A DNA stretch of 64,000 nucleotides. It comes from an uncultured Clostridia bacterium. GTDB lineage: Bacteria > Bacillota > Clostridia > Christensenellales > UBA1242. How positions within the stretch are numbered: position 1 is the first letter of the stretch; the number at the start of each line of letters is the position of its first letter. Position numbers and translations under genes: made by a program. The stretch is taken from positions 3,753 through 67,752 of the forward strand of contig CALWEW010000003.1 in assembly GCA_944377415.1 (NCBI GenBank), in the 5' to 3' direction. Below the pieces are notes generated by a model. That model made no database searches and had not been told where the DNA came from. It saw only the letters and a list, made by a program, of their open reading frames with translations. This document shows, in pieces, positions 9,242-55,600 of this stretch.

Positions 9242-9262
9242 TCAATCTTGCTCCTTGCTTAA

Positions 9263-11701: not shown

Positions 11702-11776
11702 TAAAAATGTAGAAAAATCGAATATTTTGTAATAATTGCACGCGTTTAAAGACAAAATAAAAATAGGGATAAAATT

Positions 11777-26820: not shown

Positions 26821-26860
26821 AAAGATATATCAAAACCACCGATATATCTTTTTTATTTTT
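26821..26860. terminator. bidirectional rho-independent terminator between convergent genes
   Basis: AAAGATATATC (26821-26831) pairs with GATATATCTTT (26841-26851) across a 9-nt loop, with an A-run upstream and a T-run downstream. Confidence 0.65.
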
Positions 26861-26961: not shown

Positions 26962-28182
26962 CTAAACCTGCCTTATTACTTCGGCAAATGTTTGACTCTC
27001 ATCGTAAAATTCTGGCTTGCCTTGAATGTAATTCTCCCTAATTAGTTTTATGTGGCAGTTGCATAATTTATCCAGAATATCTAAATAATCCCTTAATTTT
27101 TCATCAGTACAATTTGTATAGCCCGAACAAATTATACTTAAACTTCCATTGTTTGTATTCCTACTGTAAGCAAATAAGCGTTTAAGTTGTTGCAAAATTT
27201 CGTCATCATAAGATTTAGCAGGACAACGGTCAGACAATAAATCACGCAAGTTTGTCATAAGAGTAGTAATATCGTCAATTATTAATACAACATTATTGCC
27301 TAATTCGCATATACGCTTAATTCTGTCAAGAATAATTTCAAAATAAAAATTAATGTCAGCAGGTAAGGTATCAAAAGTTGTAAAGAAGTACTCACAGTTT
27401 TTAAGTAAGATTTTTTCTTCGGGGCGCTTACAAACAGAAAAGTAGACAACTTTGTACCTTTCATCTAAATCTTTTGCTATACTGTTGCATAAGTAAGTTT
27501 GTCCTGCACCGTTTTCACCGACTATCATTAAACGCTGACCAATTTTAAATGGACAAACCTTATTTATAAATTTTAGTTGAGGCAGAGTAAATTCTATTGT
27601 GTTACTTATTGGAGAAATTTCCATTTGAGCAAAGTCTTGACGAGTAAGTGTTGGGGGACAATCGTTAATTTCGTAAATTTCAAGCACGCGCGGGGTTCTT
27701 TCTTGGAAGTGTATACCGCACTTGATTTTATCACCATTTCGCAAATTTTCAAAGTGTAGTGTGTTTTCTTCAATAATAGCGTAAACATTTATATCCAGGC
27801 TTTGAGAACTTGTAGGGAAGAAATACAAAGTGTCGCCAATGTATTTTACAAAACCCGTGTAAATATTTTCACGCACTTCTTTTAATTTGCTGCCTTCGGT
27901 CGAGTATAATGCGCCTGTTGTTTTCGAAAATGCCTCAAAGCCAACAAGTTTATTCCATTCACTGTCAGGAATAATTTCTTTTTTGTGAGGTCTGCCACTT
28001 TTAATTTTTAAATAAGGCTCAACTTTTCCTGTAACAACATCAACTATTGCTTGGCGCAATTCCTCCGCTTTTAATGCAGTAGGGTTTCGCACGCCTATTT
28101 TAGAGCCTACTTCTCGTAGTTGGTATAAATTTAGTGTTCTTAATTTTTCAATATCAACTCTGTATTTATCGTTTTTGTTCAT
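26962..28182 (-). CDS. Rho-like protein (Rho_N, OB/RNA-binding-like and RecA-like domains) with degenerate ATPase motifs
   Basis: Collinear similarity to E. coli Rho, aligned from memory. N-terminal helix bundle: LNLYQLREVGSKIGV..P.ALKAEELRQAIV. OB region: ENLRNGDKIKCGIHFQERTPRVLEIYEIND versus [32 protein letters not shown]. P-loop position: GQRLMIVGENGAGQT versus GQRGLIVAPPKAGKT. Also VVLIIDDITTL versus VIILLDSITRL, and GSLSIICSG versus GSLTIIATA. Confidence 0.7.
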   Translation of the reverse strand: MNKNDKYRVDIEKLRTLNLYQLREVGSKIGVRNPTALKAEELRQAIVDVVTGKVEPYLKIKSGRPHKKEIIPDSEWNKLVGFEAFSKTTGALYSTEGSKLKEVRENIYTGFVKYIGDTLYFFPTSSQSLDINVYAIIEENTLHFENLRNGDKIKCGIHFQERTPRVLEIYEINDCPPTLTRQDFAQMEISPISNTIEFTLPQLKFINKVCPFKIGQRLMIVGENGAGQTYLCNSIAKDLDERYKVVYFSVCKRPEEKILLKNCEYFFTTFDTLPADINFYFEIILDRIKRICELGNNVVLIIDDITTLMTNLRDLLSDRCPAKSYDDEILQQLKRLFAYSRNTNNGSLSIICSGYTNCTDEKLRDYLDILDKLCNCHIKLIRENYIQGKPEFYDESQTFAEVIRQV

Positions 28183-28465
28183 AATTTCCTCTTTTGTTTA
28201 GAAATATTTTATCATATTACACACAAAAAGTAAAATATTTTCTTGATTTTTGTGAATGTCGTACAAAAAAGTACAAAAATAATAAGAATTTAACATATAT
28301 AATTAAAATATTGTAATACATCTCCTAGCTTTAGTGCAATTCAATTTATATGTAGTTTTTATTTTATGCTAAAATAAAATATAATAGGGAATATTTTTGA
28401 GTGTTTTTAATCCCGATTAAAAAATTTTTAAATAATAATTAACTATATTTAAAACCTTAAAAATA

Positions 28466-28499
28466 AAAGAACATGCGAAATAAAATCACATGTCCTTTT
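28466..28499 (-). terminator. probable terminator after the 2790-aa gene
   Basis: Minus strand reads AAAGGACATG...CATGTTCTTT (one mismatch), followed by a T-rich run, 14 nt after the stop. Confidence 0.4.
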
Positions 28500-28512
28500 A
28501 GATTATAAATTA

Positions 28513-31500
28513 TTAACGAACTTTCATGCGTGTACGCATAATGATGAACATTATAACAAGTCCAACTACAACGACACAAGCAACTACAATTAAAATAATT
28601 GCAGCGGTGTTCAGTGGAACATCAATTGTGAGCCTATTACTTGAAAGCACATTACCACTAGCAGACTGAATTTGTACTATATATGTTCCTGCTTCGTTAT
28701 AATTAAAGTTTTGTGGTTCGACAACGGTACCATTTTCAGCATTAATCGTATATACAATTTGACCGTTTACTACAATATAGCAGTCACCAACACGCTCGTA
28801 AATGCTGGCAGGGTTAATTGTAATTGTAAAGCCTGAAGTACTTGATGACCCCCAATCGCGTGAACAACTGATTGTAGGAATTTCATTGTTTATCCAAAAG
28901 TCGAAAGTATAATTTTGACTTGGGTTATAGCCTGTTCCAGCATATCTAACAGTGATTGAATATCTGCCTACACCGTAGTTATCAGGGTCAATGTATATAG
29001 AGTGAATTGTACTGTTTGTTCCTCGCACTTCGTCAGTAATATCAGTTCCCGAACGAACAACTGAAATAATTTCGTAGCCTGTCATGGCTGTGAATTCATA
29101 ACTTGTCAGTGCTTCATTAGGGGATAGAATTGTAAATTGATAAGTTGAAACCAAATCAGCAGAATTTGTACCAACTACCGAGCGAATTGAGCCGCGCATT
29201 GAAACTGTGTAGACACCAGGTTCTGTAAAGATATAGTGTCCGTCTGTTGCTGCGAGTGTGTACGCCTCATTATTTCTTGTTATGCTTACTTCTAGAGAGT
29301 CATATTCACTCAAATCACCCGAGAAAGTAGTAGGAATGTATAGGTCAACATCATTAGAGAATGTTGCATACTGAATAGGAGCAAGGTCGTTTACATAATA
29401 AACGACTTCATTTAATAGATTTAGGGTAAATTCTGTATAATTTGCACCAAAGTATTGATTTTGGCCTACAGCATCATGGATTCGAATAGTATAAATACCT
29501 GACTGCGTAAGTAAGATATTTCCGCTTGTATAAGTGCCAACTAACACATTGTTGTACCATAATTCGAGGGAATAGAAGTCTGCGTAAGTATTTTCTATGC
29601 CTGCTGTTGTAATACTACTGTCATAGTAGGTGGTTTCCCATGTCAGAGTTGCTGTCGCGTTTTCGGTATCGGTCAGGCGTTTGTAAATGTTTCTAGAATT
29701 TGAAGTAGGGGTTTCGCCGTTAATTCTAAAATTAGTTGCCGATGAAATATTTGAAGTAGGAATACGAGTTACCGCAAAGTATGTGCTAATAACATGAGTT
29801 GTAGTTCCATAAACATTGCAAATTCGTGTGTTTCCGAACTCGTCAACCACACGATAGTTTAATCCTTTATCTCTATTTCTTACAATTTCAATATTTCTAT
29901 CCCAGTCACTATCAGAACTAAGGAAGAAGTATTGAGGCATTGACATATTTGATGTCGTTCCGCCTGTGGTCATAGCATAATTATATGGTACAGAATGTGC
30001 AGTAAGTTGAGTTGTGTTACCTTGTGAATCAAGCTGATATACTCCATACACTGAAACTTCATATGAGCGAATTGTAAATACACGCGTTCCATTTGAGTAC
30101 ACACCCATTGAGTTATAAAGTCTTACGGTGTATACACCTTCTTCACTTACGGTAGTAGGCGAGGTGATTTCTGTTTCTGTGCCGTCAGGACTAACAAGTG
30201 TTACATACGGATTAAATAGAGAGTTTGTTTGAGACCACGAAATCATAACAGGTCTTGATGTAACATCGTTAATTAGTGGTGAGCCCGCAGTATCTGTTAT
30301 TGAAATAGTAGGGAAATGTGTGTAAATCACAAATTCGAAGATTGTTGCGGTGTCTGTATAATTGTCAACTGCGATATGTACAAGATAGTGAATATTTTGT
30401 GTGGCATTGAATGTTAAGTTTGTTACGCCGAGTGACATGTCATCAATAGCCAAATCAAAGTATGGTGAATCGGTTGGCAAATCGCTCACCGTTCCATCTT
30501 GATTTGAGTTCGTGTAGAGCAATGTGTTTGTATCAAGGTCGGTTATGCTTAAATTAATTCGCAGAGCGCTAGACTGATACCTAAACAATACATCATTTGA
30601 AGTGTAAGTATAAAGAGTTCCACCATATTCATATTCCATAGTTCCGCCTGAGTATGTAAGTTCACGAACTACACTTGTGTCAGTTGGATATGAATAGGTA
30701 TAACTTCTACCAAAATTATCTGTAAACTCAAAGCGGTAGGTTACATTGCTAGCAAGCCTAAAAGTGTAACCGTTTATGATTGAATCATCAGTAATATCAC
30801 TTGCGCTGTTAGGTAAAGGCTTTAGATTAGCATCATAAGATTGTAAACTACCATCACGATAAACACGGAAGTCCTCGAGCCATGTTGAAGGAATACTGCG
30901 TGTGTCAGGAAGCCTAATTGTGAATGTATTGTCGTTGTTGACAGTTATCAAACTTAGGAAACTTTCTTCGCTGTCGATAAGTAATGCGCCAGCTGTGTTG
31001 ATATAAATCACGATGTCATTATCGCTGTTTAATCTGCTATGAATTGTAAGTTGAATGCGACAACCTTGAGAATTGGAGTAAGTAAGAGCCGTTTCTTGAA
31101 TGAAGTTATTTATGTTTTGAATGATAGTGTCGATGTTGTTAACTGTTACCCCACTGAATGTAGGTAGGTTGGTAAGCGTGTCATCAGGAGCGTAATAGTA
31201 TGTTTCGCGCTCTTGTTGACCCATAAGGTTGCGAATTGTGAAAGTTGTCCACAAGTCGCTACTTTCAATTAAGTCAAATCTAAAATCGCCACTATTAAAC
31301 TCAATTATATCTTTGTTATTGGGGTAGTACTGCTGGTTGTTATAGTAAACAGTTGTCCCAGAAGCCGTAGTGGTGTAGAAGTCGATGCTGTCGTCATTAA
31401 TTGTAGCATGCATCGTAGAATCTCCACCTGTAACAAAAATTGTGTAAACTCGCATGTTACCTGCGGTGTCTTGTTCAATAATGTCGTAATAACCAGGCTC

Positions 31501-34500
31501 TGTGATTGTTGTACCAGTCGCTTCGTTTATACCTCCACGATAAACGGCAAGGTGGTAGTCAGGGTTAGTGGGTGAGAATATGTTTTCTGCATTTTCGTCA
31601 TAACCAGGTTGACCTTGAACTACTGTTTGTTGTAGGTAATTACCAGTATAATTCTCATGGCGGAAGTAGTAGTATTCAAGGCTCGATTCATACTCATTTA
31701 AGTAGTCAAGTGTAAAGCTTGAAACCGCGAATGCATATGACTTTAAGAAAGTAACATTATCGTTATCTATATTTTCAATTAAATAATCAGTAAAGTTAGT
31801 TCCGCTTGTGTTGAGTGAGTTTAGGTAGACATCGTTTTCAATTAGGTTTACAAGGTTTTGGTAGGGTGATGTGTTGTCTACATAAAGTGATTGTGTTGTT
31901 TCATAATAAATCGACTGATTAGACATGTTCGGTGCATCATAATCATCGGGAGACATTGCGATGTAGTGTACATTTACAGTGTACTCGACATCGACGAGTT
32001 TATTTTGATAAAGTGATGTATTTTCATAGTCTGCACGAGGTAGAAGAATATAATAGTTATATACTCCATCTACGCGCATTTTGTAAAATTCGCTATCGCT
32101 AAGGTTAGTTGATTCGAGCGCTGCATTTATAATAGCATCAAGTTCAGCCTGCGTTTCGCGGTAAATAAATGTTACATTTTCAATTTCGTCAGGGTCGGAA
32201 AGTAGTTCTTCATATTCGTCAGCATCACAGGTAAGTAAAATTGGGTTAGAGAAACTGTAACTTGTAGTTGTACCAGAATTTTCATTTCCGTCTGCATCAA
32301 TTTTGGGATTTGATTTTGTGTAAATTGTTTTGTATACTAGCACATCATTAAAGGCAAGTTGGGCTGTGTATACATCAGTTGGGTCAGACCAACTTATGCG
32401 CACTTTGTCTGCACCAGTTACATTTGATTGAGAAATATCAATGTCTGTAAATGTTGTATCACCACTTTGGAAGTTAAAATCTGGGCTAATTCCTGTGAGT
32501 TCAAAGTTAAATATTGTATAATTTGGTGATAAGTCTATTAAATCATTTCCATATGTGAGTTCCTCAAAATATGTTGCATCGCCATTCATTACACCCGTTG
32601 TGTTTGCTAGGTCAAAGAGAATAACTCGATATTTCCCAACATTTGTAAATGCGTGTTTTAGATTGTCAAGAGGGTAGCAATCGTATGCTTCGCTTGCATT
32701 GTTTCTATATATATTAGAATAGAAACGCTGGTTATAGAAAGTGTAAATTCCTGTGTTTGAGCGTATAAATGTTTGCACAACTACTTGAACTCGCGAACTA
32801 TTTTGATAAGCATCGAAGATTTCATTTAGCAAAGTTGCGGCTTGACTTTCGTCAATTTCATCGCCAACAGGATAGTAATATTTGTCGTAAACACTGTTAC
32901 CGTTATCGGCTGCCCAAGTGCTTAAGTTTATACTTGCGGGTAAAATGTTACTATCAATCACCATGTTAGTTGGTTCACTAGCTGGGTCATTGGTCGCATC
33001 AAATGTTAATACATCACGGAAGATATCACTATTTGATGTACGACTAAATTGATTAAATGTAACTCCACCATAATCAGGATAACCTTCATACTCGCCCTTG
33101 TCATAACCAAAGCCTATTGAAATATCACTTCCGTAGTTGCTTGTATCGGTAGGAATAATAGGGTTGCGGTCAAGGTAGTAAGTGTAAGTTCTTACCAAAG
33201 TATCGCCACCTGCTTCTGCCGAATTTTCGTCAAAACCGTCGTGATATGTTCTAATGATTTCGTACATACCTGCCGAACTTGCAGCTCCGCCGTACGACTG
33301 AACATAGTCAAGAGGCACTAGTACACTAGTTTGGTAGTGAGTAGATGTAACGCTTCCGCTTGCTTCGACAGTAAATATTTGATAGTCAGACTCGCCGTCG
33401 CTATCATAAATAACTGTATCTTCATAAGAGTCAGAGTAGGGGTAGTTTTCGTTATCTTTATTATACGAGAAAGGATAGAAGCGAAGGACTATGCTGTCTA
33501 TTGTAAAGTATTCGTCTGCGACAGTCCAACTAAAAGTTACATAACGGCGATTTGTCGAGTATGTGTTTGGTACGACTTGACTGTCAGTAACTTCGTCTTC
33601 TGTACGAATGCTTTCAACTAATACAGGACCATCTGCGTTAGGTTCAAACGAGTCATAACTGCGTAAAGTACCTTGTGAGCGGTCAAGATTTACATCAACG
33701 GTAAAATTACCATTGTAATTGCGCATTTCATCATACACACGAATTGTATAACTTAGCGAATTGCTGTTGGCAAATTCGTGAATAGGGTGATTTAAATTAT
33801 CTACTACACCTTCTGGGCGAATTTGTGTTTGATGCGTGTCAGTTGAATCTGGTTTTGGGTCAACTGAAATAGTTCCCCACCAGTTTTTAGGAGTTCCGTC
33901 CGTGTCGATGTATGGTGTTATCGTTTCTGTTGTGCCATCTGAGATAGAGAACTCAACGCTATCAATAGGGGTAATATAATTATTTGCACTAATTGCAGAG
34001 TTTAGGGCATTTTTAACAATCTCATCTGCTGTGAAAGTGTTATTTGAAAGTGTCCATGTGTAGTCGCCGTTTACGAAGTCCAAAATGTCATTAATTTGAT
34101 TATCGGTAGATGATAGTTGATTAATAGAAATTGATTTGTGTGTGCCCCAGTAGAAGTCTGTGTCGTCGGTAATAATATTTACATATGAAGTTTGTTCTGG
34201 GTCTTGCAAAATTTGTGTTTCTGTGTCATCTAAAATCGTTATGAAAATCGCTGTGTTGCCCGCAGCATCGGTGAGAAGTAGCACTGCAAATTGAGGACTT
34301 GATATAATTTGTGAGGTGGGTAGGTTTGTGAATACATCAGTTATATCAACTTTATTGTAATTTATTGCGGGAGTAAAACCTCCAAAGGAAGAATCTGTGG
34401 GCATCAACACATTTTGATTTGAAGCCGCCATGCTTTTCATTTGTTCGATATAACTACTGTCTAATGAGAAGCTTCCATCTGTCTGAATACTTGAGTAAAC

Positions 34501-36885
34501 ATATCGAGCGGTGATTTCAGCTCCACTTGCTTTGTCGTCCCAAGTCCATGCAAACGGGGTGTTAGTTGCAAGAACATAATCGCTAGCGTTATCTGTAAGG
34601 CGAGATATTACAATTGCATCTCCGTTTTCGTCCGCGGCAACATGTCTACCTTCAATTTCAACTGCTGTTATGTTTGTAATAGGGGCAGTATCAATAACAA
34701 AATGATGGTTTACAAACGCTTCGGGAGAGTCTTCTCTAAAAACCTGAATGTAGTAGTTGCCGTCAAGTCCAGAGCGTCCATTTACACTTAAATTAGTACC
34801 ATAGAGCATTGTCGGTGTGCCGTTTGTAACATCAAAATAATCGCCAACACTATTTTGCTGGTAAACAAGGGCATTTATGTCGCCTTGACCGATTAGATTA
34901 TTACTCCAATCATAAGCATAATATCTTGCAGTAATTTCAGCATCAAAGGGGCCGACATTTTTCCATGAAACATAAACGAAGTCGTTTGTATAGTCGTTCA
35001 TGTTTAGTGCAGTTGCCGATGCATCTTTAATTCCAGGGTAGTCAGAAGTTGTCTTTGCACTAATTTCTATTTGTGGGGTATCATTAGTAATTTCGAAGTA
35101 GAATATTTGATGTGCATACTGATAAGTCATGCCGTCATTTGCATGACCTGATTCATAAATTATGTTCTCATAAGTTAAGTAAACGAGATATGTACCTGCA
35201 TTTTGGAATTGAAGGTTACGAGTGTAATTAGACACCGTAATATTGCCTAAAGTGTCTCGGTAAGCATACCAACTTACATTTGTTGCTTGAAGCCTACCGT
35301 AAAACTCAAAACTTACGGGAGGCATGTTAGTACTAGCATGAATTACTTTTGTTGAGTTTAAGTTGAATACTCCGCCTTCGCTTTTATCCAGAAAGAGATT
35401 TTCAATAACTCCAGTTGCACTAACATCGGTTGATGTCAAGCTGTCATTAGTAATTACGCTGTTATTTTCACTAGCGTTGGTATTTAAAAAGCTGAAATCT
35501 GCAGTGTAAATACTTTCAGGTGGGGTTGGGTCGCTAGCAGAAATTGTAGTGATTTCTGTGTTGCTTGTCAAAAAGTCATGAGCGTAAACAACACTTGGAG
35601 TAGTCGATGGGACAGTACTCATAGAATTATAAGCATAAGTATTGTCATAAAGTGATGCGGTTGTTGAGCGTGAATCTGCGTAATTCGCAGTATAACCATT
35701 TATTACAAGTCTTTCACTTTTTAATAGGTCTTCATTTGATGTTACAACTTCGCCGCTGGCAAGAGCATAAGTCGCAACTCCGTTGTTGTCTGACGGGTTT
35801 CCAGTACGCAAACGCGCAGTTTTGTTTATTACATATTCACCTGCTTCATCAAATTGAACTCGTAAAGTGTAATGGTCATTATTACCTTTTTCAATACGAT
35901 ATGTGCGAGAGTTTGAAAGACCTGTGTTTGTTGAAGTTGTTACAATCAATTCACCATATTCGCCACTGCCAGAGTCACGGGCAGTGAAATTAAGTTCTAC
36001 GGTTTCAACATAATTATAAAGAGTGCGAGTGTAGGTAATTTGATACTTTTCAGGATTGTAATATAGTTGGGGATAATATAATTCACCTTTTGTAGAGCGG
36101 GTGATTAGGCTCAAATTTTCATCGTAAATAGTTGTGTATTCGTTGTTGTAGTTAAAGTAGTGGAGCATACCATACTCTTGATTAGACAAAGTAAATTTCT
36201 CGGTGTCGTTAAGTGATGGCATTTCAAGAGGAACAGAATAGGTCTTTTGAGTGGTTAGGTAAAAGGTGAAAGTAAAGTTGTATTGTTGACCTGTTTCTCT
36301 ATCCATGTACGGAATTTCGATGTCATATCTGCCTTCGGGGTCAGAAACTTCGGTATCAACTCCCGTATCGTAGCGGGTGATGTAGTCGCTGTTTAGATTG
36401 TCTTCTGCGACTTCGTCAGGTGTAAGCCCGTGAAGATAAAGGATAGTTTCAAGAGTGTCGCCATCTTCGTTTATATAGTTGTCTTGAATTAACTGACCAT
36501 TAAATCTAACATTTACATTTGTAAAGTATAAACCACTTGCGTTGTTTGGACCTCCAAAGTAAATATAAATAGCCTCTCTGCCGACTTGCTCGATACCTTC
36601 TTCATCTTGAAGTGTTGCTTGCTCGGTGTTTAACATGACAAATTGTCCGTTTTCAATGCTTTCTGCGGAACTAACAATGTGCCTAATTTCTGTAGGGCTA
36701 TATTCTCCATCATCAGCGTAAGCATCAGGTAAAAAAACCTTTTCAATATACACTGTTGGAGTAGAAACGGCACTAGCACTTTTTTGTTTTGCAAGTAAGG
36801 ATACACCGAGCATGCTAAAAGCCAGCAAGGCAATAATACTTACCACAGCTAAAACTGTGTAGTTTCCGAATTTCCTATTATTCAT
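28513..36885 (-). CDS. giant (2790 aa) envelope protein: N-terminal signal/anchor, about 2700 aa of Ig/PKD-like beta-sandwich repeats, C-terminal TM helix with a basic tail
   Basis: Uninterrupted 8.4 kb ORF with a GGGGGA ribosome-binding site. N-terminal hydrophobic segment YTVLAVVSIIALLAFSMLGVSLLA followed by SASA. The motif GxYxhxhxDxxGN recurs, for example PGYYDIIEQDTAGN, LLLTDAAGNTAIF, GIYTIRIHDAVGQ, EGVYTVRLYNSMG and AGTYIVQIQSASGN. The C-terminus is VPLNTAAIILIVVACVVVVGLVIMFIIMRTRMKVR. Confidence 0.9.
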   Translation of the reverse strand: MNNRKFGNYTVLAVVSIIALLAFSMLGVSLLAKQKSASAVSTPTVYIEKVFLPDAYADDGEYSPTEIRHIVSSAESIENGQFVMLNTEQATLQDEEGIEQVGREAIYIYFGGPNNASGLYFTNVNVRFNGQLIQDNYINEDGDTLETILYLHGLTPDEVAEDNLNSDYITRYDTGVDTEVSDPEGRYDIEIPYMDRETGQQYNFTFTFYLTTQKTYSVPLEMPSLNDTEKFTLSNQEYGMLHYFNYNNEYTTIYDENLSLITRSTKGELYYPQLYYNPEKYQITYTRTLYNYVETVELNFTARDSGSGEYGELIVTTSTNTGLSNSRTYRIEKGNNDHYTLRVQFDEAGEYVINKTARLRTGNPSDNNGVATYALASGEVVTSNEDLLKSERLVINGYTANYADSRSTTASLYDNTYAYNSMSTVPSTTPSVVYAHDFLTSNTEITTISASDPTPPESIYTADFSFLNTNASENNSVITNDSLTSTDVSATGVIENLFLDKSEGGVFNLNSTKVIHASTNMPPVSFEFYGRLQATNVSWYAYRDTLGNITVSNYTRNLQFQNAGTYLVYLTYENIIYESGHANDGMTYQYAHQIFYFEITNDTPQIEISAKTTSDYPGIKDASATALNMNDYTNDFVYVSWKNVGPFDAEITARYYAYDWSNNLIGQGDINALVYQQNSVGDYFDVTNGTPTMLYGTNLSVNGRSGLDGNYYIQVFREDSPEAFVNHHFVIDTAPITNITAVEIEGRHVAADENGDAIVISRLTDNASDYVLATNTPFAWTWDDKASGAEITARYVYSSIQTDGSFSLDSSYIEQMKSMAASNQNVLMPTDSSFGGFTPAINYNKVDITDVFTNLPTSQIISSPQFAVLLLTDAAGNTAIFITILDDTETQILQDPEQTSYVNIITDDTDFYWGTHKSISINQLSSTDNQINDILDFVNGDYTWTLSNNTFTADEIVKNALNSAISANNYITPIDSVEFSISDGTTETITPYIDTDGTPKNWWGTISVDPKPDSTDTHQTQIRPEGVVDNLNHPIHEFANSNSLSYTIRVYDEMRNYNGNFTVDVNLDRSQGTLRSYDSFEPNADGPVLVESIRTEDEVTDSQVVPNTYSTNRRYVTFSWTVADEYFTIDSIVLRFYPFSYNKDNENYPYSDSYEDTVIYDSDGESDYQIFTVEASGSVTSTHYQTSVLVPLDYVQSYGGAASSAGMYEIIRTYHDGFDENSAEAGGDTLVRTYTYYLDRNPIIPTDTSNYGSDISIGFGYDKGEYEGYPDYGGVTFNQFSRTSNSDIFRDVLTFDATNDPASEPTNMVIDSNILPASINLSTWAADNGNSVYDKYYYPVGDEIDESQAATLLNEIFDAYQNSSRVQVVVQTFIRSNTGIYTFYNQRFYSNIYRNNASEAYDCYPLDNLKHAFTNVGKYRVILFDLANTTGVMNGDATYFEELTYGNDLIDLSPNYTIFNFELTGISPDFNFQSGDTTFTDIDISQSNVTGADKVRISWSDPTDVYTAQLAFNDVLVYKTIYTKSNPKIDADGNENSGTTTSYSFSNPILLTCDADEYEELLSDPDEIENVTFIYRETQAELDAIINAALESTNLSDSEFYKMRVDGVYNYYILLPRADYENTSLYQNKLVDVEYTVNVHYIAMSPDDYDAPNMSNQSIYYETTQSLYVDNTSPYQNLVNLIENDVYLNSLNTSGTNFTDYLIENIDNDNVTFLKSYAFAVSSFTLDYLNEYESSLEYYYFRHENYTGNYLQQTVVQGQPGYDENAENIFSPTNPDYHLAVYRGGINEATGTTITEPGYYDIIEQDTAGNMRVYTIFVTGGDSTMHATINDDSIDFYTTTASGTTVYYNNQQYYPNNKDIIEFNSGDFRFDLIESSDLWTTFTIRNLMGQQERETYYYAPDDTLTNLPTFSGVTVNNIDTIIQNINNFIQETALTYSNSQGCRIQLTIHSRLNSDNDIVIYINTAGALLIDSEESFLSLITVNNDNTFTIRLPDTRSIPSTWLEDFRVYRDGSLQSYDANLKPLPNSASDITDDSIINGYTFRLASNVTYRFEFTDNFGRSYTYSYPTDTSVVRELTYSGGTMEYEYGGTLYTYTSNDVLFRYQSSALRINLSITDLDTNTLLYTNSNQDGTVSDLPTDSPYFDLAIDDMSLGVTNLTFNATQNIHYLVHIAVDNYTDTATIFEFVIYTHFPTISITDTAGSPLINDVTSRPVMISWSQTNSLFNPYVTLVSPDGTETEITSPTTVSEEGVYTVRLYNSMGVYSNGTRVFTIRSYEVSVYGVYQLDSQGNTTQLTAHSVPYNYAMTTGGTTSNMSMPQYFFLSSDSDWDRNIEIVRNRDKGLNYRVVDEFGNTRICNVYGTTTHVISTYFAVTRIPTSNISSATNFRINGETPTSNSRNIYKRLTDTENATATLTWETTYYDSSITTAGIENTYADFYSLELWYNNVLVGTYTSGNILLTQSGIYTIRIHDAVGQNQYFGANYTEFTLNLLNEVVYYVNDLAPIQYATFSNDVDLYIPTTFSGDLSEYDSLEVSITRNNEAYTLAATDGHYIFTEPGVYTVSMRGSIRSVVGTNSADLVSTYQFTILSPNEALTSYEFTAMTGYEIISVVRSGTDITDEVRGTNSTIHSIYIDPDNYGVGRYSITVRYAGTGYNPSQNYTFDFWINNEIPTISCSRDWGSSSTSGFTITINPASIYERVGDCYIVVNGQIVYTINAENGTVVEPQNFNYNEAGTYIVQIQSASGNVLSSNRLTIDVPLNTAAIILIVVACVVVVGLVIMFIIMRTRMKVR

Positions 36886-37046
36886 AAAAAGTCCCCCTTT
36901 TTTATGCCCGTAAAAATCACAATTTAATTACTAAATAATTTTATCAAATTGCCGTAGAAAACACAAATAAAATGATATAATTTGACAATTTTTTTAGATA
37001 AAAATCGCATTATGACTATTTTTTGTTTTTTTGTCGAAAAAATACA

Positions 37047-37072
37047 CAAAAAAGCGGGGTAACCGCTTTTTT
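37047..37072 (-). terminator. rho-independent terminator after the coupling-protein gene
   Basis: AAAAGCGG-GGTA-ACCGCTTTT hairpin (37050-37070) flanked by A and T runs, abutting the stop at 37071-37073. Confidence 0.6.
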
Positions 37073-39035
37073 AAAAGTTAAAGTTGTTATTGCTTAAAAC
37101 AAGTTTGTTTCGCTGTCTAATGTCATAGTAAATCTGGTCTTCGTTTATGAAGCGAGGAATAACATAATCATCATTCATAGGCTTCATATTATAAACATTG
37201 CTAACTTTGTATGCGAATGTAAATTCACTTTTTAAGGCTTTTTCCTTAAACATTGACACAATCATTTCACCTTTCTTTAAGTAGCCGAGTTCGTCAGGTG
37301 TAATGAGTGCACGACTGACACGCTGAACATTAGTCGACTTTGTTGTGTCTTGTTTTGACTTGCTTTCACTTGTTGATTTTGCTTCGACACTCGTTTGTCC
37401 GCATCGAGCGCTAAATTCTTCTTTTGTTTTTTGGTCTTCTGTACCTAAGTATACATGTACATTACAGTTTGATTTGATAACATCTGCCGCTGCTTCACCA
37501 TATTTGATTTCGACCTGTCTGTAACTTTGTACGACGAGCATGAGCGCGATTCCACGGCTACGACCGACAGTTACAATACTTTCAAATCTAGGAATTTTTG
37601 GCATGTTTGCAAACTCGTCAAGAATAAAATAAACATGGCGAGGAAGTTCTAGTTTCGGCGTTCGACTTGCGACTTCAACAAGGGTTTTGTACATTTGCAA
37701 TACGCACATTTGTGCTATAGGGTGGCGCGTTTCTTTTTCGTCGGGAACCTTGATAAATAGCGCTGTTGGTTTGTCTGCAAAGTGTTCAAAATCAATTTCG
37801 TCTGCACTAGTAGCAAAACATACACCGCTATCAGCAAATACATTAACAGCATTTGATACCATACCAAAGTAAGAGCGAGTTGTACCAGGTGCATTGTTTA
37901 CAATAGGACCTGCAAGGGTAGTTGCGTTTGACATGGGTCCACGCCCTTCAAAATATTTTTGCAGTGAGCCAAATTGTCTGTCGGGGTCGGCATCGCGCAC
38001 ATTACATATCTTATATAAATTAAAGAAATTATATTTCTCTGCTGTCATATTAAGACGCGGGTCGGCGGAGTCTTCGAGCATGGCTAGCATAGTGCCTAGG
38101 ATAAAGTCCTTTGCGCCTTGTTGCCAGCTTGCATCATTAGTACCCTCTGATACAGGACTTAGGGACATCGCAATGTCATTTAGGTCTTCAAACGCCGAGT
38201 CAATTAGACCTTTTCTCGTGGCGGTTAACTGGCTTTCTATTGAGTCGCGGTTCGGAAAAGCGACTCCCTCAAACTCGTACCACTCGTTATCATACACTGG
38301 GGAAATGACACGAAGTCCACAGTCAGCGGGGTTTTCGTTGCGGTGGACAATTACTTCTTTTCTCAGATTTAGCGCGCGTTGATAGTTTTTATAAGGTTTG
38401 TACATCGGGTTCCAGCGCGTACTTGAATACGGATTTCGCAGGTCAAAAGTAACTAGGGTGTAGCCCTCGTCTTTTAACTTGTTGCCGTGCATATTATATA
38501 ATTCACCCTTAACGTCCATGATTACCAAACTTGGTTTTGTTGAGGTGCTTGCCAAAATTTGAATAGTAGGGGAAATATAACCAGCAGTTTTACCACTACC
38601 AGTAGTACCTACAATCATAGTGTGCCAAACTTCGTGTAGAAGATTTACCTTTACATTGTTTCCAACCGCTTGCGCGCGAATAGGCACACCGTCTTTGTGA
38701 CTATGAAGGTCGCGAAAAAAACAACCATCGTACTTTTTATTAAGTTCTTGTTCTGTAAGCCATTCAGAATCGAAAAACTGCTCCGTTGGCTTTTTACCGT
38801 CTTTTTTCTTTTTATCTGATGACTTAAACATAGATTTGCCATTTGCTGCTTGCACTAAAATGTAAAGAATGAAGGCAACCATTATTAGAGCCCAAATACC
38901 CCACGAATAACCGCCCATAATTCCTTCAACAGTAATTGAGCCTGTTTCTAAAAATGAGCCGATTATACACGATATGCCGTAACCCAAAATAGCAACGACA
39001 ACAAAAGCCCAGAAATACTTCCAAAACTTATTCAT
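37071..39035 (-). CDS. type IV coupling protein (VirD4/TraG family ATPase)
   Basis: Two N-terminal TM helices. Walker A GTTGSGKT (nt 38586-38609). Walker B region YFILDEFANMPKIP. The segment GRSRGIALMLVVQSYRQVEIKYG is typical of TraG/VirD4. Confidence 0.85.
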   Translation of the reverse strand: MNKFWKYFWAFVVVAILGYGISCIIGSFLETGSITVEGIMGGYSWGIWALIMVAFILYILVQAANGKSMFKSSDKKKKDGKKPTEQFFDSEWLTEQELNKKYDGCFFRDLHSHKDGVPIRAQAVGNNVKVNLLHEVWHTMIVGTTGSGKTAGYISPTIQILASTSTKPSLVIMDVKGELYNMHGNKLKDEGYTLVTFDLRNPYSSTRWNPMYKPYKNYQRALNLRKEVIVHRNENPADCGLRVISPVYDNEWYEFEGVAFPNRDSIESQLTATRKGLIDSAFEDLNDIAMSLSPVSEGTNDASWQQGAKDFILGTMLAMLEDSADPRLNMTAEKYNFFNLYKICNVRDADPDRQFGSLQKYFEGRGPMSNATTLAGPIVNNAPGTTRSYFGMVSNAVNVFADSGVCFATSADEIDFEHFADKPTALFIKVPDEKETRHPIAQMCVLQMYKTLVEVASRTPKLELPRHVYFILDEFANMPKIPRFESIVTVGRSRGIALMLVVQSYRQVEIKYGEAAADVIKSNCNVHVYLGTEDQKTKEEFSARCGQTSVEAKSTSESKSKQDTTKSTNVQRVSRALITPDELGYLKKGEMIVSMFKEKALKSEFTFAYKVSNVYNMKPMNDDYVIPRFINEDQIYYDIRQRNKLVLSNNNFNF

Positions 39036-39427
39036 AATACCTCCGATTTTTTAAACTTTTTTAAAGTGAAGAATAAAGGCGAAATTAAGTTAATGGGTAA
39101 ATTTTTGTAAAAAATTACCGAAAAACAGGTGGTAATTTTCGATAAATTTTTACTCAATTTAGATTATTTTTGGCAAAAACTTTAAAAAAATTTAAAATTT
39201 CTTAAAAATTGTACTTAATTAATTTGCTTTTGTCAAATTTATTTGGTAATATATTTTCATAAATTTGTGTTTGCTTGATTTTTTGGCAGTTGTAATTGCG
39301 TATTTGAGCCTTAATAATATGTAATTAATTATACGCATAATTTTGAATTTCAAGCAAAACATAATTTAAAAGTTTTAGTTTAAGGCAATTCTAAAACAAA
39401 TCAAAAAATATCGGAGGTATTTGATTA

Positions 39428-39817
39428 ATGAGTGCACTCATGTTTCAAGCGGCCAACGCTATTATGAACTCTGCTGCAGGCTTCCCTTTGTTAGCTGATG
39501 GTTCAGACCCTACAACACCTGACATTAATTCAGGACAATGGGCTTGGGTAGGTGAAATTGTTGATGCAATTAACACAATTCTTTATCCTTTGCTAATTCT
39601 TCTTGCTACAGCAGGTGTGATTTACGCCATAATTTTGGGTGTAAAATTAGCGCGTGCCGAAAGTGCGGACCAGCAACAGGAGGCAAAAAAGCGTTTGGTA
39701 AACTTTATTATTGGTCTTGTTGCGGTAATTGCGTTGATACTTCTCATGAAGTTGGTATGTACTTATCTTCCTGAATGGGTACCTAGCCTTTACATTGACA
39801 CTTCAACAGGTAACTAA
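39428..39817 (+). CDS. small two-helix membrane protein, VirB2/TrbC-pilin-like topology
   Basis: 129 aa with a GGAGG ribosome-binding site. A possible signal peptide ends at ...FPLLA/DGS. Two hydrophobic helices (ILYPLLILLATAGVIYAIILGV and LVNFIIGLVAVIALILLMKLV) are separated by a charged loop, KLARAESADQQQEAKKR. It is the first gene of the T4SS arm. Confidence 0.5.
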   Translation: MSALMFQAANAIMNSAAGFPLLADGSDPTTPDINSGQWAWVGEIVDAINTILYPLLILLATAGVIYAIILGVKLARAESADQQQEAKKRLVNFIIGLVAVIALILLMKLVCTYLPEWVPSLYIDTSTGN

Positions 39818-40122: not shown

Positions 40123-42102
40123 TTGGCAAAAGTTGCAAGAGTTGGTATATTTTTAATGTTGTTGCTGGTCGTTTTTTGCTTTGCTGGATGTAGTTGGTTT
40201 GATAGTGGTGGACTAACCCCTGGAACAGGCGAAGGTGAACAGTCTTTCCCTGATGACCGTTATCAAACGGGCGACAAAGAATATCCAGGCATGGACTGGG
40301 ACTCGTCTGAATACACCGCACAAGATAATGAAGACCGCGCAAGTGCGACTCAGGCTGTTCGTGCAACCTATACACCAGAAGCCTTTGAGACGACTGATGA
40401 TGCAGAGCTTCAAGCTGACCGCGATAAATTTAATAAAAACGCAGCCTTGCAATATGAGATTGTTGCATATTCAATTTTGTATTATTTAGTCGGTAATTAC
40501 GGCTATATTGACGGACAAACGGGCGAAAATTTGAACTATATTTTTTATGCTGACACATCGTATTTAACACATGGAGAACAGCAAAGTGCGACCGTTTCGC
40601 TTCCTGTAATTAAACCTTTTGAGGCGGATGATTTGTATCTTGATGGTCATGATGGTGCTATTGAACACACAATTGCAGGGCTTGCAGGTGAGTATACATA
40701 TGATGCTGTAAGCGATTCTGGAACTTGGAGTGTAGAGCGTGTATATGAAACACAATATAGATGGAATTTTAATCTTGATAGTGAAGTAACATCGAGTTAT
40801 AATCAAAATTTTATCAACGAGTTTTTGCCTTATGTGCAGATTAATTTGATGGAGTATGGTCTCGGGCACGAACTTACTCCTGTCAGTCAACTCATGACAC
40901 TTGCTCCCTCGCAACTTGATGCACTTATTCATGACTATGTCGGTGAAATTGATAAACTTGGAATAATTGCTAATCAAGAGTATTCGGACTTCTTGTATAA
41001 TTACATAATGGATACTATAATTGGCGAGAATGCTCTTTCTCGCGAAGGTATGACATTTGTCTATGATGAGCCGAGCGACACTTATACGATTGCGCTTGAA
41101 CCAGACCCAGATAATCCTGATGCGCCGACAGAAGAAGTAATAACAGTGTACTACGATGTTGATGGTAATCCAGATACTCATTCATTTACTTCAAGTGCTG
41201 CCAACGGTATCTATAAGTATGATTATGAAAATACAGTGCGTGAGATTGCTGATATAATTGCGGGAACTTATGATGCAGGCGGAAATGAGTTAACTCCAGC
41301 AATTTCGGCAGAGTTCCCGACATATACACGACTTGAAATGGTTGATGTTTCGCCAGATTTATTCTATACCGAAGGTGAAGAAGCGGAAGAGGGAATAAAC
41401 AGGCTTAACAACATGCCATACATGGAATATGAGAGCGTAATTATTTATCCTGACGGACAACGCGGGGCAGATGAGAATTTTGAAACTGTTATTGACTATG
41501 ATAACAAAGTTTGGCAGTTTGATTATGTAAACTTTTATGTCGATAGTGTGAGTGATTTAACGCTTGATATTTATTTGAGACTTCATATAGATGGGGCTGA
41601 TTATATTGCACATGTTACACGAATTCAAACTGATGGGGAGCAGGGCTTTGACTACGCGCCGAGTTTTGCGGGTGAAGGCGACAACAACTCCTCAGGTAGT
41701 AGTGACGAGGCTGACGACAGTGATACCTTTTTCCCTGATTATCAGTCTAATGTTGGCTTAACTTATGCTCCGTTATTTTTACCCGACCACACAGATACAC
41801 TTGCCACTGGTATTGAGAATACGAGTGAAGTTTCGTCATACGCGGAAAGTGGCGAGTATAAAAGTTTGTTCGTTGGGAAACTTGGACAGTCTACTGAATA
41901 TGACAAAACGACATTTACGGTTACAAATCACTACGGTGAAGATGTTGAAATTAACTTAACTTTGTGTACAAGTGATGATGATTTTGTTGAGTATATCTTT
42001 GTGCCTGATAAATCACAAGGCGATGACTATGACTACCGCTTTAAGTTTATGATTAAGGACTCATACTGGGGGAGTGTGAGCAGTGAAAGTGAAGGCACAT
42101 AG
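40123..42102 (+). CDS. acidic surface lipoprotein (659 aa), T4SS-associated, unknown fold
   Basis: TTG start 9 nt after AAAGGAG. Signal MAKVARVGIFLMLLLVVFCFAGC, with the lipobox Cys23 at nt 40189-40191. The mature part is rich in Asp/Glu/Tyr/Thr and has no recognisable motif. Confidence 0.75.
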   Translation: MAKVARVGIFLMLLLVVFCFAGCSWFDSGGLTPGTGEGEQSFPDDRYQTGDKEYPGMDWDSSEYTAQDNEDRASATQAVRATYTPEAFETTDDAELQADRDKFNKNAALQYEIVAYSILYYLVGNYGYIDGQTGENLNYIFYADTSYLTHGEQQSATVSLPVIKPFEADDLYLDGHDGAIEHTIAGLAGEYTYDAVSDSGTWSVERVYETQYRWNFNLDSEVTSSYNQNFINEFLPYVQINLMEYGLGHELTPVSQLMTLAPSQLDALIHDYVGEIDKLGIIANQEYSDFLYNYIMDTIIGENALSREGMTFVYDEPSDTYTIALEPDPDNPDAPTEEVITVYYDVDGNPDTHSFTSSAANGIYKYDYENTVREIADIIAGTYDAGGNELTPAISAEFPTYTRLEMVDVSPDLFYTEGEEAEEGINRLNNMPYMEYESVIIYPDGQRGADENFETVIDYDNKVWQFDYVNFYVDSVSDLTLDIYLRLHIDGADYIAHVTRIQTDGEQGFDYAPSFAGEGDNNSSGSSDEADDSDTFFPDYQSNVGLTYAPLFLPDHTDTLATGIENTSEVSSYAESGEYKSLFVGKLGQSTEYDKTTFTVTNHYGEDVEINLTLCTSDDDFVEYIFVPDKSQGDDYDYRFKFMIKDSYWGSVSSESEGT

Positions 42103-51000: not shown

Positions 51001-51441
51001 AGTACCGTTGGCGAAGGTACAATGTCAGGAGATTATGCTGACCGAGCTCGTGAAGAAGAATTTGCACATAATTTCGTAGCATCAGTTACAAACTTGTTTG
51101 AGCATGAGTTTAAGGATAAATCTAAAAATAAAAAACTCGAAGATAATGGTTCTATTTACGAAATTAAAAACGATACAAAACTTGCAGCAATGCAAACAGC
51201 GTACGCGTTAATGGAAAAGGTTTGTGAATTCCGTGAGGCAAACAAGGATTTGTTTGAAAGCAGCAAGTTCACACCTTCTGCAGTAGGTGAGTATGTAAAA
51301 GCAGCAGGTGGCAGAGGAAAAGTTATTGATAGCTTAAAAACAATACTCGAACCCGCGCTTAATTCAGGTATTTATGAGGCTAAAGGTGTGTACAATGCTC
51401 AAGTGATAAAAGAGCAAAATACAAACACTAGTTCGCGATAA
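48055..51441 (+). CDS. large (1128 aa) soluble protein without recognisable domains, T4SS-associated
   Basis: Long ORF with an AGAGGTAAGG ribosome-binding site and its own promoter. No TM helices, no P-loop, and no relaxase, primase or hydrolase motif that I can see. The central and C-terminal regions are Glu/Lys/Ser-rich. Confidence 0.7.
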   Translation: MSGNKESDKMKLRSELGKKAFWFSKKKYFNRGLLDFFPNSKGRYVENLAGVIGTDYYGEKFAEAQTVVNFDGSFEDAQVRNYANNTRERVPFSLLANGYNSKALLGKLRDMELNQSATKARIESITGRNLDTPYTDEWALLSLEEPVITPDEFKKVASAEMFIQNPVIAEVSDKSPFEFDSSDTSATSFAPPKIGSLNINRLPHMTNIENFDRVVKRVADGAGIDIIASDIKKDGVEVTKRKFYSSLRTIKNFVKKSTNRRVSGLPNNYVLKYSNANTQSEQLYMVLKSVSELSVRPNIERTAELCGTASNLPSKEEFETHRNAIERASACLVASDVVRMLGLSKDDAQVFSDFFTVEAIRNISTLPRDSETIMPLIADYYAESINSFAQDFNLSIADLATAKGVPANVAGQAVNLGAILYAKYIPQMTNTLGVRSGLRVKPEELDFLIFNLPKLEMESTATPPAQTKTIPALPPESELNKDKKQEQGERRPVPIAPKLLNRTENTLYGEKLATETYDNGDSKFYVNGKLCEDSVDYGLILDLVYAANNRERIEAIPQRKPDAAMQIMKDKNTGEEYCYVDGHVSTRNTLNHYNTIDEFYQVNGVYCSEAEYRLYKTFCTQFTATAGKVGESSNQFNPNGSGQPIVRDAEFEVLSGESGDSAGKVGNGSNKGQTKGGENIDGFDNLTNLINSVNESESEAVTLVTPKGSTAESESAKVPSKQGEMFGDILEHVAKARGHKEDYVRKLEGQVDAKSQDKAKTDNEVLESIYDPEKEQNLVEIAKTMERYGLGQQTVEQDKIKVSVDPDLLARIEQFTSEHPRFKGYFVEPEDYNEIRLKRLSAPFNKSGPAREEEVYEPESREDANSHLGGGNADEKVAQDIARSASTRQTSLETFGMENGGYDAFADEVQSASVGAEKKAEKESKVWNENPTLPTKKVEKKPSDDKCPSSVKQKCYELVVDALSSFAYDRQQESLANKAEAESTVGEGTMSGDYADRAREEEFAHNFVASVTNLFEHEFKDKSKNKKLEDNGSIYEIKNDTKLAAMQTAYALMEKVCEFREANKDLFESSKFTPSAVGEYVKAAGGRGKVIDSLKTILEPALNSGIYEAKGVYNAQVIKEQNTNTSSR

Positions 51442-53077: not shown

Positions 53078-53306
53078 AATTTAAGTATTTTTGTTTTGTT
53101 GCATTACCTCCACGAATGTGTTTTTCGTCAAAGTTGAGTTGCGCTTGCGCACTCACTTTTTCGTATAAGGAGGGGCTTATTCGTGGTAAATAGACATGCA
53201 GGTAGTTGTGAATGGTGCTTTTGCTTTTCCCAAAAATTTTTGCGCATTCTCGAACTGTCGTTTTGTGCTCTAAATAATATTTAGCGACCTCTATTTCCAA
53301 ATACAT
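53025..53306 (-). CDS. spoIIID: sporulation transcription regulator SpoIIID
   Basis: 93 aa. TVRECAKIFGKSKSTIHNYLHVYLPRISPSLYEKV...HIRGGNATKQKY aligns with B. subtilis SpoIIID (TVRVIAKEFGVSKSTVHKDLTERLPEINPDLANEV...HLRGGEATKLKY). Confidence 0.85.
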   Translation of the reverse strand: MYLEIEVAKYYLEHKTTVRECAKIFGKSKSTIHNYLHVYLPRISPSLYEKVSAQAQLNFDEKHIRGGNATKQKYLNFTRAFSGAQKQANTKKQ

Positions 53307-54194: not shown

Positions 54195-54217
54195 AACAGA
54201 GCGCGTGCTCTGTTTTT
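54193..54217. terminator. bidirectional terminator between convergent genes
   Basis: AAACAGAGC-GCGT-GCTCTGTTT forms a perfect hairpin with A and T runs on both sides. Confidence 0.7.
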
Positions 54218-55594: not shown

Positions 55595-55600
55595 GTGTTT

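Follow-up and report, generated by a model that had tools for sequence, protein, structure and literature searches.

Are the genes for two giant surface proteins and a Rho-like protein, found in a 64,000-nucleotide (nt) stretch of DNA from an uncultured Clostridia bacterium (hereafter the window), working parts of the type IV secretion system (T4SS) beside which they lie, or its neighbours by descent? The question is raised by a minus-strand arm (26962-39035) that encodes a VirD4-type coupling protein (T4CP), a protein of 2790 amino acids (aa) and the Rho-like protein (RhoL). A gene for a 5009-aa lipoprotein converges on this arm, and a divergent arm from 39428 onwards encodes further T4SS components. 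The reading we favour, to which we give an even chance of being right, is that of a chromosomally fixed and vertically inherited T4SS of the Gram-positive type known from integrative and conjugative elements (ICEs) of Mollicutes, with the giants serving contact and RhoL being a resident neighbour.

The genes on which the argument turns are the following.

37071-39035, minus strand: VirD4-type coupling ATPase (T4CP), 654 aa, matching PF02534, PF12696 and PF10412, with two N-terminal transmembrane (TM) segments
28513-36885, minus strand: 2790-aa surface protein with an N-terminal signal/TM segment, an ectodomain of about 2700 aa and a C-terminal PLNTA motif, TM helix and basic tail
26962-28182, minus strand: Rho-like protein RhoL, 406 aa, with a full-length Rho fold and lost catalytic residues
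11777-26806, plus strand: 5009-aa giant lipoprotein with a lipobox, its gene convergent on the Rho-like gene
39428-39817, plus strand: VirB2-like pilin, 129 aa, matching PF18895 and NF045849 (Mbov_0395 family)
40123-42102, plus strand: 659-aa exported protein of no known family, with an N-terminal TM segment, D/Y-rich and K-poor
42464-44920, plus strand: VirB6-like polytopic membrane protein, 818 aa, with five TM segments, MMCAP2_0566 and Mbov_0396 families
45181-47913, plus strand: VirB4 ATPase, 910 aa, matching NF045975 (Mbov_0397 family), with two N-terminal TM segments
48055-51441, plus strand: 1128-aa protein encoded directly after VirB4, without TM segment, K/E-rich

The list of open reading frames (ORFs) gives the first three as co-strand frames (39035-37071, 36885-28513 and 28182-26962), which are separated by AT-rich spacers of 185 nt and 330 nt. 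The plus-strand arm consists of five genes and lies across a 392-nt divergent spacer from the T4CP gene. Gene order, strands, spacers, three hairpins and the convergent 5009-aa gene agree throughout with a preliminary description of this DNA, as does its statement that the two giant genes take up more than a third of the window (jointly 23,403 nt, i.e., 36.6%).

With regard to the T4SS itself, the T4CP matches PF02534 with an E-value of 6e-51 and NF045973 (CD1115 family) with 292.5 bits (cut-off 250), and its Walker A (GTTGSGKT) and Walker B (YFILDE) motifs are intact. VirB4 reaches 566.5 bits for NF045975, just under the equivalog cut-off of 590, and 150.8 bits for the CD1110 family; PF19044 and PF12846 also match, and the Walker A motif GKSGSGKS is intact. 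For the VirB6-like protein we obtained 155.6 bits with NF045848 (cut-off 90) and 111.6 bits with NF045889 (cut-off 70), and for the pilin 31.1 bits with PF18895 (cut-off 26.6) and 43.9 bits with NF045849 (cut-off 40). Judged by these family matches, which cover VirB4, VirD4, the VirB6-like protein and the pilin alike, the core is of the Gram-positive/Mollicutes-ICE type. Both ATPases are well conserved, i.e., the T4CP is 65-88% identical in relatives and VirB4 80-84% identical in the loci L001, L002 and L007. The 659-aa protein is a conserved member of the cluster as well (L001, L002, L004, L007, L054). Pfam and PDB searches gave nothing usable for this protein, the 1128-aa protein, a 339-aa protein considered below and the C-terminal half of the VirB6-like protein.

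Whether the giants belong to this machine can be approached via their occurrence in relatives. A scan with the RhoL profile, using one genome per GTDB species, found 15 species, all represented by metagenome-assembled genomes (MAGs) from animal or human gut and mostly labelled as uncultured Clostridia or Christensenella. Homologues of the 2790-aa protein are encoded immediately upstream of RhoL in 13 of the 15 species, and homologues of the 5009-aa protein convergently downstream of it, again in 13 of 15. The T4CP gene is present in all eight contigs with sufficient upstream sequence (a further five break off before this point), and the whole pilin-to-VirB4 arm in all four giant-containing contigs that extend so far. 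Overall, the order of T4CP, 2790-aa, Rho-like and convergent giant lipoprotein genes recurs in about 20 related contigs from MAGs of Christensenella-like Clostridia, with giant-protein identities of 40-77% across the conserved layouts. Four loci (L001, L002, L004 and L007) show the order from VirB4 to the pilin, divergent from T4CP, giant and RhoL, on which the giant lipoprotein gene converges; L005/6, L024 and L104 show the same order for the parts that each contig reaches. The linkage of the giants to the VirB4/VirD4 pair, which the preliminary description had proposed to check in related genomes, is thus kept far beyond chance. Identity to L001 is 84% for VirB4, 80% for the T4CP, 68% for the pilin, 62% for the 2790-aa giant, 57% for RhoL and the 5009-aa protein, 55% for the VirB6-like protein and 53% for the 659-aa protein. 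That is, the surface proteins evolve faster than the ATPases.

Independent occurrence of giants and T4SS genes at unlinked loci, which had been named beforehand as what would speak against a tie between them, is seen in part at one locus, L003/L019. Here, the giant and RhoL genes are present, and the 4.3 kb by which the contig extends upstream of them contain no T4CP gene. Upstream lie a GDSL lipase gene and a 1045-aa gene, and downstream a convergent gene for an unrelated 2566-aa Big_2 protein. L003/L019 thus fits an alternative in which the genes are neighbours by descent, i.e., the giants would be general envelope or S-layer-like proteins and RhoL a general regulator, beside a T4SS remnant with no coupling between them. 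This alternative also gains from L016 and L103, where RhoL stands alone, and from the housekeeping genes on the VirB4 side, whose order recurs in L105/L106 and marks the whole region as stable. We consider it somewhat unlikely. The adjacency holds down to 40% identity in every contig reaching far enough, with one exception, and a second line of evidence, given next, also speaks against it.

This evidence stems from a different VirB4 lineage. A metagenome scan for VirB4 returned 78 loci at 25-64% identity; neither the 2790-aa protein nor RhoL has a homologue in any of them, also when hidden Markov models are used for the search. Its 40-45% group shows mostly a co-directional order of T4CP, VirB6 and VirB4. 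In L034, L036, L037 and L079, VirB4 is 51-52% identical to that of the window, and its gene is followed directly by a gene for a lipoprotein of >3300 aa with an FVGC or TSCG lipobox; no T4CP or VirB6 match was found near VirB4 in these four loci. The >3355-aa lipoprotein of L034 aligns to residues 2441-3306 of the 5009-aa protein with 24% identity over 937 residues (E 2e-37). In the same locus (9998-22667) the VirB4 reading frame overlaps the giant gene, and the pair adjoins spoIIGA-sigE. A neighbour scan in the 51-56% VirB4 group, which covered the two loci L034 and L039, placed VirB4 among housekeeping genes in both (RecJ, RelA, SpoIIGA and sigE in L034; GltX, UvrA and SSB in L039). As read from these alignments, there is a second association of VirB4 with a giant lipoprotein, in which the genes are arranged differently. 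That VirB4 of another lineage, too, is directly followed by a giant relative of the 5009-aa lipoprotein, with overlapping frames in L034, speaks against neighbourhood by descent only.

How the giants are placed in the cell follows from their termini. The 2790-aa protein has TM segments at residues 10-28 and 2763-2781, i.e., a signal and a C-terminal anchor. The 5009-aa protein has no C-terminal TM segment and a predicted lipobox (..FLGLAGC27) whose Cys is residue 27; its LAGC motif supports the earlier designation as a lipoprotein, and the topology predictions suggested at that time have come out accordingly for both giants. Just before the C-terminal helix of the 2790-aa protein, an invariant [VE]PLNT[AV]A motif is found in all 16 homologues, followed by an R/K-rich tail (window 28513-28660). 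In its sequence layout, this succession of PLNTA motif, helix and basic tail resembles a protein-sorting signal. Neither giant holds an LPXT[GAS], NPXTG or [SP]PKTG motif, and no sortase was found in the window.

These features bear directly on the idea, raised in the preliminary description, that the giants are cargo translocated by the T4SS. A T4SS draws its substrates from the cytoplasm, where the coupling protein recruits them, and the sole hint at such a role of the giants is that the 2790-aa gene lies next to the gene for the coupling protein. Both giants carry N-terminal Sec-type signals together with membrane anchors, i.e., the lipobox of one and the C-terminal TM helix with basic cytoplasmic tail of the other. 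They are therefore best seen as tethered surface proteins and not as T4SS cargo, which we regard as very improbable. Under the favoured reading, the giants would be exported by the Sec pathway and remain tethered, one via its C-terminal helix and the other via its N-terminal lipid.

Beyond their termini, little in the giants resembles known families. Sequence searches of Pfam, NCBIfam and PDB give nothing for the 2790-aa protein, also when made with a profile of 16 sequences, and for the 5009-aa protein Pfam reports weak GLUG motifs only. BLAST detects neither internal repeats in the 2790-aa protein nor similarity between the two giants. Lysine is very scarce in each of them (0.9% in the 5009-aa and 1.4% in the 2790-aa protein), and N, T, S and Y are abundant; the 659-aa exported protein is lysine-poor too (2.1% K). 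Among 5.8 billion protein clusters we found 16 homologues of the 2790-aa protein, which are 40-62% identical and 2733-2959 aa long, except for one 1987-aa piece of a split gene. This piece comes from L007 (10001-18442), where the giant is divided into ORFs of 1987 aa and 822 aa by a frameshift or stop or by an assembly error; the gene is intact in the other loci that contain it whole. Along the 2790-aa protein, the part next to the membrane is the most conserved and the distal N-terminal tip the least.

Structure prediction with AlphaFold2 for residues 1700-2790, i.e., the C-terminal 1091 aa, yields an all-beta model plus the terminal TM helix with a mean confidence (pLDDT) of 67. Its Foldseek matches are chains of immunoglobulin-like (Ig-like) domains, namely of Sap, SbsC, a Haloferax S-layer protein, CD109/TEP1, gp130 and filamin, and include the Ig-like domains of PrgB (8beg, E 1.7e-4). 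According to the model, the C-terminal part would be a string of Ig-like beta-sandwiches. That the best structural matches include the S-layer proteins Sap, SbsC and that of Haloferax is also what would be expected if the giants were general envelope proteins kept in place by descent. Under the favoured reading, the giants would project long stalks, built from Ig-like domain chains in the modelled part. Contact between cells, across which the T4SS would operate, is most likely formed or stabilised by them, a role that PrgB has in pCF10 and probably CDS14 in mycoplasma ICEs; the T4SS substrate could be DNA or protein. The proposal that they are contact or adhesion components therefore stands as far as topology goes, since signal peptide, C-terminal anchor, lipoprotein nature and Ig-like array all fit, and for the function itself it draws on synteny.

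The minus-strand arm had been described as one co-directional arm, and the following signals bear on whether its genes are transcribed together.

37047-37073, minus strand: hairpin terminator 3' of the T4CP gene, overlapping its stop codon, with an 11-bp stem followed by a T-run
28464-28500, minus strand: hairpin terminator 3' of the 2790-aa gene, with a 15-bp stem followed by a T-run
26821-26860, both strands: bidirectional hairpin terminator common to the convergent 5009-aa gene and the Rho-like gene, with T-runs on either side
39195-39290, both strands: bidirectional promoter core of the divergon in the pilin/T4CP spacer, with back-to-back -35 boxes TTGACAA / TTGTCAA
39236-39208, minus strand: promoter-like site of the T4CP gene, TTGACA-17-TACAAT (from a scan)
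36938-36973, minus strand: promoter-like site of the 2790-aa gene, TTTGTTTGTGTTTT .. TTTGATAAAAT
28206-28234, minus strand: promoter-like site of the Rho-like gene, TTTACT-17-TAAAAT with TG before it (from a scan)

The hairpin of the T4CP gene has a folding energy of -12.1 kcal/mol (z-score -4.1) and is found at the same position after the T4CP gene in L001, that of the 2790-aa gene has -18.2 kcal/mol (z-score -7.5), and the convergent hairpin has -14.8 and -15.6 kcal/mol on the two strands (z-scores -5.2 and -4.8, with 0 of 200 shuffles as stable). Upstream of the Rho-like gene, TTTAC..TGCTAAAAT and a further upstream TTTTTGTA repeat are kept in 8 loci; the promoter-like site of the 2790-aa gene is likewise kept in 8 loci, with the remainder of its spacer not conserved. 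Both sites are of the extended -10 type. Given the hairpins and the promoter-like sites upstream of each gene, we therefore predict three separate transcription units, as the signals indicate for the T4CP, 2790-aa and Rho-like genes. Joint transcription of the arm is thus not borne out, and the own promoter-like site and terminator of each gene are a further point in favour of neighbourhood by descent. The term divergon is apt for the T4CP gene versus the pilin-to-VirB4 arm.

Within the spacer between these two, a core of about 90 nt is nearly 100% identical in 6 loci, although the giants there are only 42-62% identical to that of the window. It contains a perfect 9-bp inverted repeat (39234-39267; CAAATTTAT-N16-ATAAATTTG), which overlaps the -35 boxes and is unique in the window, with 0 occurrences expected by chance. 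This core is presumably an operator for some regulator, to judge from the repeat; alternatively, it may have a role like that of an origin of transfer (oriT). Expression would then proceed from the bidirectional promoter into the T4CP gene one way and into the pilin-to-VirB4 genes the other way, while the 2790-aa and Rho-like genes would each be expressed from their own promoter-like site to their own terminator.

Is the cluster a mobile element? No relaxase, integrase or transposase family match was obtained for any scanned ORF of the 64 kb, and for the unassigned ORFs no relaxase match even at E <= 0.5. GC content is flat across the block. L105/L106 show the Pfam order of the window on the VirB4 side (Flg_new protein, SpoIIID, PP-loop ATPase, 339-aa gene, Ppx, MreB, ParA, M50, LGT). 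The giant of that genome has only 54% identity to that of the window, and the position of the 1128-aa gene is taken there by a 1318-aa gene. A plasmid collection provides VirB4 matches of at most 27% identity (Spiroplasma and Mycoplasma; Mbov_0397 type), no match for the 2790-aa giant, and matches of RhoL to true Rho only. Judged by sequence, neither a relaxase nor a recombinase with a variable insertion site, by which a conjugative element would be recognised, is thus apparent within the 64 kb.

The alternative to a fixed site is an ordinary ICE, in which the giants would be accessory mating adhesins and the relaxase and recombinase would lie outside the window or be unrecognisable. It draws support from the core, which matches NCBIfam models made from mycoplasma ICEs and from the Clostridioides CD1110/CD1115 conjugation families, and from mycoplasma ICEs using a DDE transposase and no classical relaxase (PMC6030558). 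It could further appeal to a tRNA-Leu(aag) gene (55601-55688, minus strand) 4 kb beyond the cluster, whose 3' 24 nt are repeated nearby (55382-55405 and 55598-55621); the repeat could be the scar of an old integration event. As an attachment site of an ICE, however, we reject this tRNA gene, as its 3' end is repeated only once, at a distance of 216 nt, so that the block is not bracketed. Together with the missing relaxase, integrase and transposase matches, the shared VirB4-side flank in a genome with so divergent a giant, the flat GC content and the lack of a close relative in the plasmid collection, this makes an ordinary ICE unlikely in our view. The Rfam scan of the window reported tRNA only. 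The window further encodes SpoIIID (53025-53306, minus strand) and a SpoVT-like regulator (4704-5222, plus strand), and L034 has SpoIIGA/sigE. Sporulation genes are thus present in these organisms and surround the T4SS block.

The remaining member of the arm is RhoL, which had been called a Rho paralogue and counted as part of the T4SS arm. Its homology to Rho is clear: NF006886 matches residues 10-356 with E 6e-24, and a PDB profile search matches Rho with E 3e-19. The AlphaFold2 model (pLDDT 85.5) has Rho structures only as best Foldseek matches (top match 7x2r_B, E 2e-21, TM-score 0.62-0.65 over about 415 columns), from which a three-domain Rho architecture of N-terminal helical domain, OB-fold and RecA-type domain is predicted. 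On the other hand, the scores of 84.6 bits for NF006886 (cut-off 315) and 70.1 bits for TIGR00767 (cut-off 509) are far below the family thresholds, and the catalytic residues are lost. That is, the Walker A motif reads GENGAGQ228T, where the change from Lys to Gln is invariant in 23 aligned family members, DERPEE is changed to C-K252-R-P-E-E with Lys for the catalytic Glu, and the Arg-finger segment is missing, since the region aligned to ..RRIFPAID.. of true Rho is deleted. In the numbering of E. coli Rho, we take the respective residues to be K184 (Walker A), E211 (catalytic) and R366 (arginine finger).

The best-conserved part of RhoL is its N-terminal helical domain, followed by an invariant K-S-G-R-P-H motif that is predicted to be flexible and, by its residues, resembles an AT-hook. 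The close family is small: a word-indexed search gave 28 matches, of which 26 belong to it and two are true Rho. Relatives grade off in an exhaustive search with a profile, in which 35 clusters reach E < 1e-30. The nearest outgroup of RhoL retains GSGK[TS] but already has D-K-R-P-E. The wider Rho-derived relatives (P0061-P0101) have an N-terminal GRP[HP]xK in common, and many of them show a decayed Walker A and D-K-R-P-E in place of D-E-R-P-E. Wherever their source is named, they come from Clostridia; one is named by NCBI "Rho termination factor N-terminal domain-containing protein". The wider set is apparently undescribed in the literature that we searched.

RhoL adjoins the giant gene in every locus having the giant. 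For its history, one more gene of the window is informative.

54216-55235, minus strand: 339-aa protein of no known family, with a homologue upstream of RhoL in the giant-less clade

Ten homologues of this protein were found. In L016, a 41% identical homologue (8828-9916) lies directly upstream of RhoL, and in L103 a 360-aa gene of no known family (8897-9979) takes this place, the likeness being one of position and size. In both loci RhoL is located in a housekeeping region (mur genes, rpmF, rpsI, priA, gatB), with no giant and no T4SS within 10 kb. A neighbour-joining tree places the RhoL of L016 and L103 as sister to all giant-linked RhoL, with uncertain rooting on distant Rho. RhoL is therefore probably a resident gene that predates the association, i.e., a neighbour older than its link to the T4SS rather than a part of the T4SS, and the earlier notion of a T4SS component does not stand up to the two loci. 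In the window, the 339-aa gene and RhoL keep strand and order, with a 26-kb block between them; this block contains, besides the T4SS in full, the 2790-aa gene and three small genes. A simple insertion of this block would fit order and strand and is a possibility which we do not adopt; housekeeping-type genes lie inside (PP-loop ATPase, SpoIIID), and no border repeats were found.

As for its function, RhoL probably acts as a regulator that binds nucleic acid and not as a motor, given its sequence changes, and may modulate expression of the adjacent giant gene. Rho substrates are characterised by a raised C/G ratio. For the giant mRNA this ratio is 1.20, in part owing to a strand effect, which gives a weak hint at a RhoL role in giant-gene expression. 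A bolder reading sees in RhoL a Rho paralogue that forms rings and acts on nucleic acid without catalysis, alongside a domesticated relaxase-less T4SS that forms a cell-to-cell machine with the giants in gut Christensenellales. It is tentative, and we doubt that it is right. In such a case RhoL may bind nascent RNA or poison Rho hexamers such that the 8.4-kb giant mRNA is completed, and it may be a dedicated anti-terminator for the giant genes, perhaps for the 15-kb mRNA too.

Returning to the favoured reading of a fixed, vertically inherited T4SS with contact-forming giants, several points besides the L003/L019 locus weigh against it. The functional link between giants and T4SS is drawn from synteny, and the giants, T4CP and RhoL genes are separate transcription units. 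The model of the giant is of moderate confidence (pLDDT 67) and covers the C-terminal 39% only, and an Ig array is just as typical of S-layer proteins. Neither a VirB8-like protein nor a cell-wall hydrolase was recognised in the cluster, and the 659-aa protein, the 1128-aa protein and the C-terminal half of the VirB6-like protein are without family-based function assignment. A relaxase may be encoded beyond the 64 kb or belong to a type that was not recognised, and mycoplasma ICEs likewise do without a classical relaxase (PMC6030558).

The T4SS-giant association is of moderate interest, the Rho-like family potentially of greater. Christensenella-like Clostridia are common gut bacteria and mostly uncultured. 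If the favoured reading is true, a fixed T4SS under purifying selection, apparently without DNA-processing genes, would extend a pattern seen in Patescibacteria to Bacillota, and two unannotated giants would gain a concrete, testable role. A relaxase-less chromosomal T4SS also raises the question of what such machines move. RhoL points to an undescribed Rho-derived family without catalytic residues, which matters for transcription biology whatever its link to the T4SS.

Among known systems, pCF10 and related MPF-FATA (a mating pair formation class) systems with PrgB share the VirD4, VirB4 and VirB6-like core and Ig-like surface adhesins encoded alongside. They differ in anchoring, since the window has neither LPXTG motif nor sortase and its giants are anchored by a TM helix or a lipid, and in composition, with a VirB2-like pilin in the window, where relaxase, VirB8-like protein and VirB1-like hydrolase are not recognised. 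The pCF10 adhesins had been put at about an order of magnitude smaller than the giants. This is overstated: PrgB of pCF10, which we take to have about 1300 aa, is only 2-4x smaller, i.e., the giants of the window are 2-4x larger.

The mycoplasma ICEs (ICEA/ICEB, with CDS5 = VirD4 to CDS17 = VirB4) come closest in their components, as the NCBIfam models Mbov_0395/0396/0397 and MMCAP2_0565/0566 match, a surface lipoprotein is encoded with the T4SS, and a classical relaxase is lacking. Conjugation there depends on the surface lipoprotein CDS14, which probably brings donor and recipient into contact (PMC6030558). In contrast, the VirB4 of the window is only about 25% identical to Mollicutes proteins, and its cluster keeps one chromosomal position; the searches of the window turned up neither a DDE transposase nor any further gene of an ICE backbone. 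The host has the standard genetic code and is apparently a Clostridium relative bearing sporulation genes. The surface proteins are also giant (2790 and 5009 aa), with no relation to the searched family libraries beyond weak GLUG motifs.

Patescibacteria possess chromosomal relaxase-less T4SSs with PF18895 pilins, and the lack of a relaxase suggests a function other than classical conjugation there (PMC12102498). The window resembles them in its monoderm-type VirB4, the PF18895 pilin, the chromosomal location and the absence of the relaxase, which holds for most of the Patescibacteria clusters. It differs in that its host belongs to Bacillota and that two giant surface proteins flank the system, whereas no PrgB-like adhesins were detected in the Patescibacteria study (PMC12102498).

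With regard to protein size, the large Ig-like (Big) proteins of IncHI plasmids are similar, i.e., very large exported proteins that accompany a T4SS and are reported to be required for conjugation (PMC6764697). Hodor conjugative megaplasmids likewise have giant exported proteins on T4SS-bearing elements (bioRxiv 10.64898/2026.02.21.707213). Both are plasmid-borne, while the plasmid collection contains no homologue of the 2790-aa protein, and the Hodor proteins have S-layer/MBG domains and a proposed sortase anchor. For RhoL, the comparison is with Rho and its duplicates: a 2024 survey of Rho diversity describes second Rho copies (Group B / Type 4) that keep the catalytic residues and usually lack the N-terminal domain (PMC11347177). 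RhoL shares the three-domain fold over its whole length with Rho, and a second Rho-type gene has precedent. It differs from the duplicates by an N-terminal domain that is its best-conserved part, by the Gln in Walker A, the change of the catalytic Glu to Lys and the deleted Arg-finger segment. The locus is thus distinct from the compared systems in its host, in the size and novelty of its surface proteins, in their mode of anchoring and in its Rho-like neighbour.

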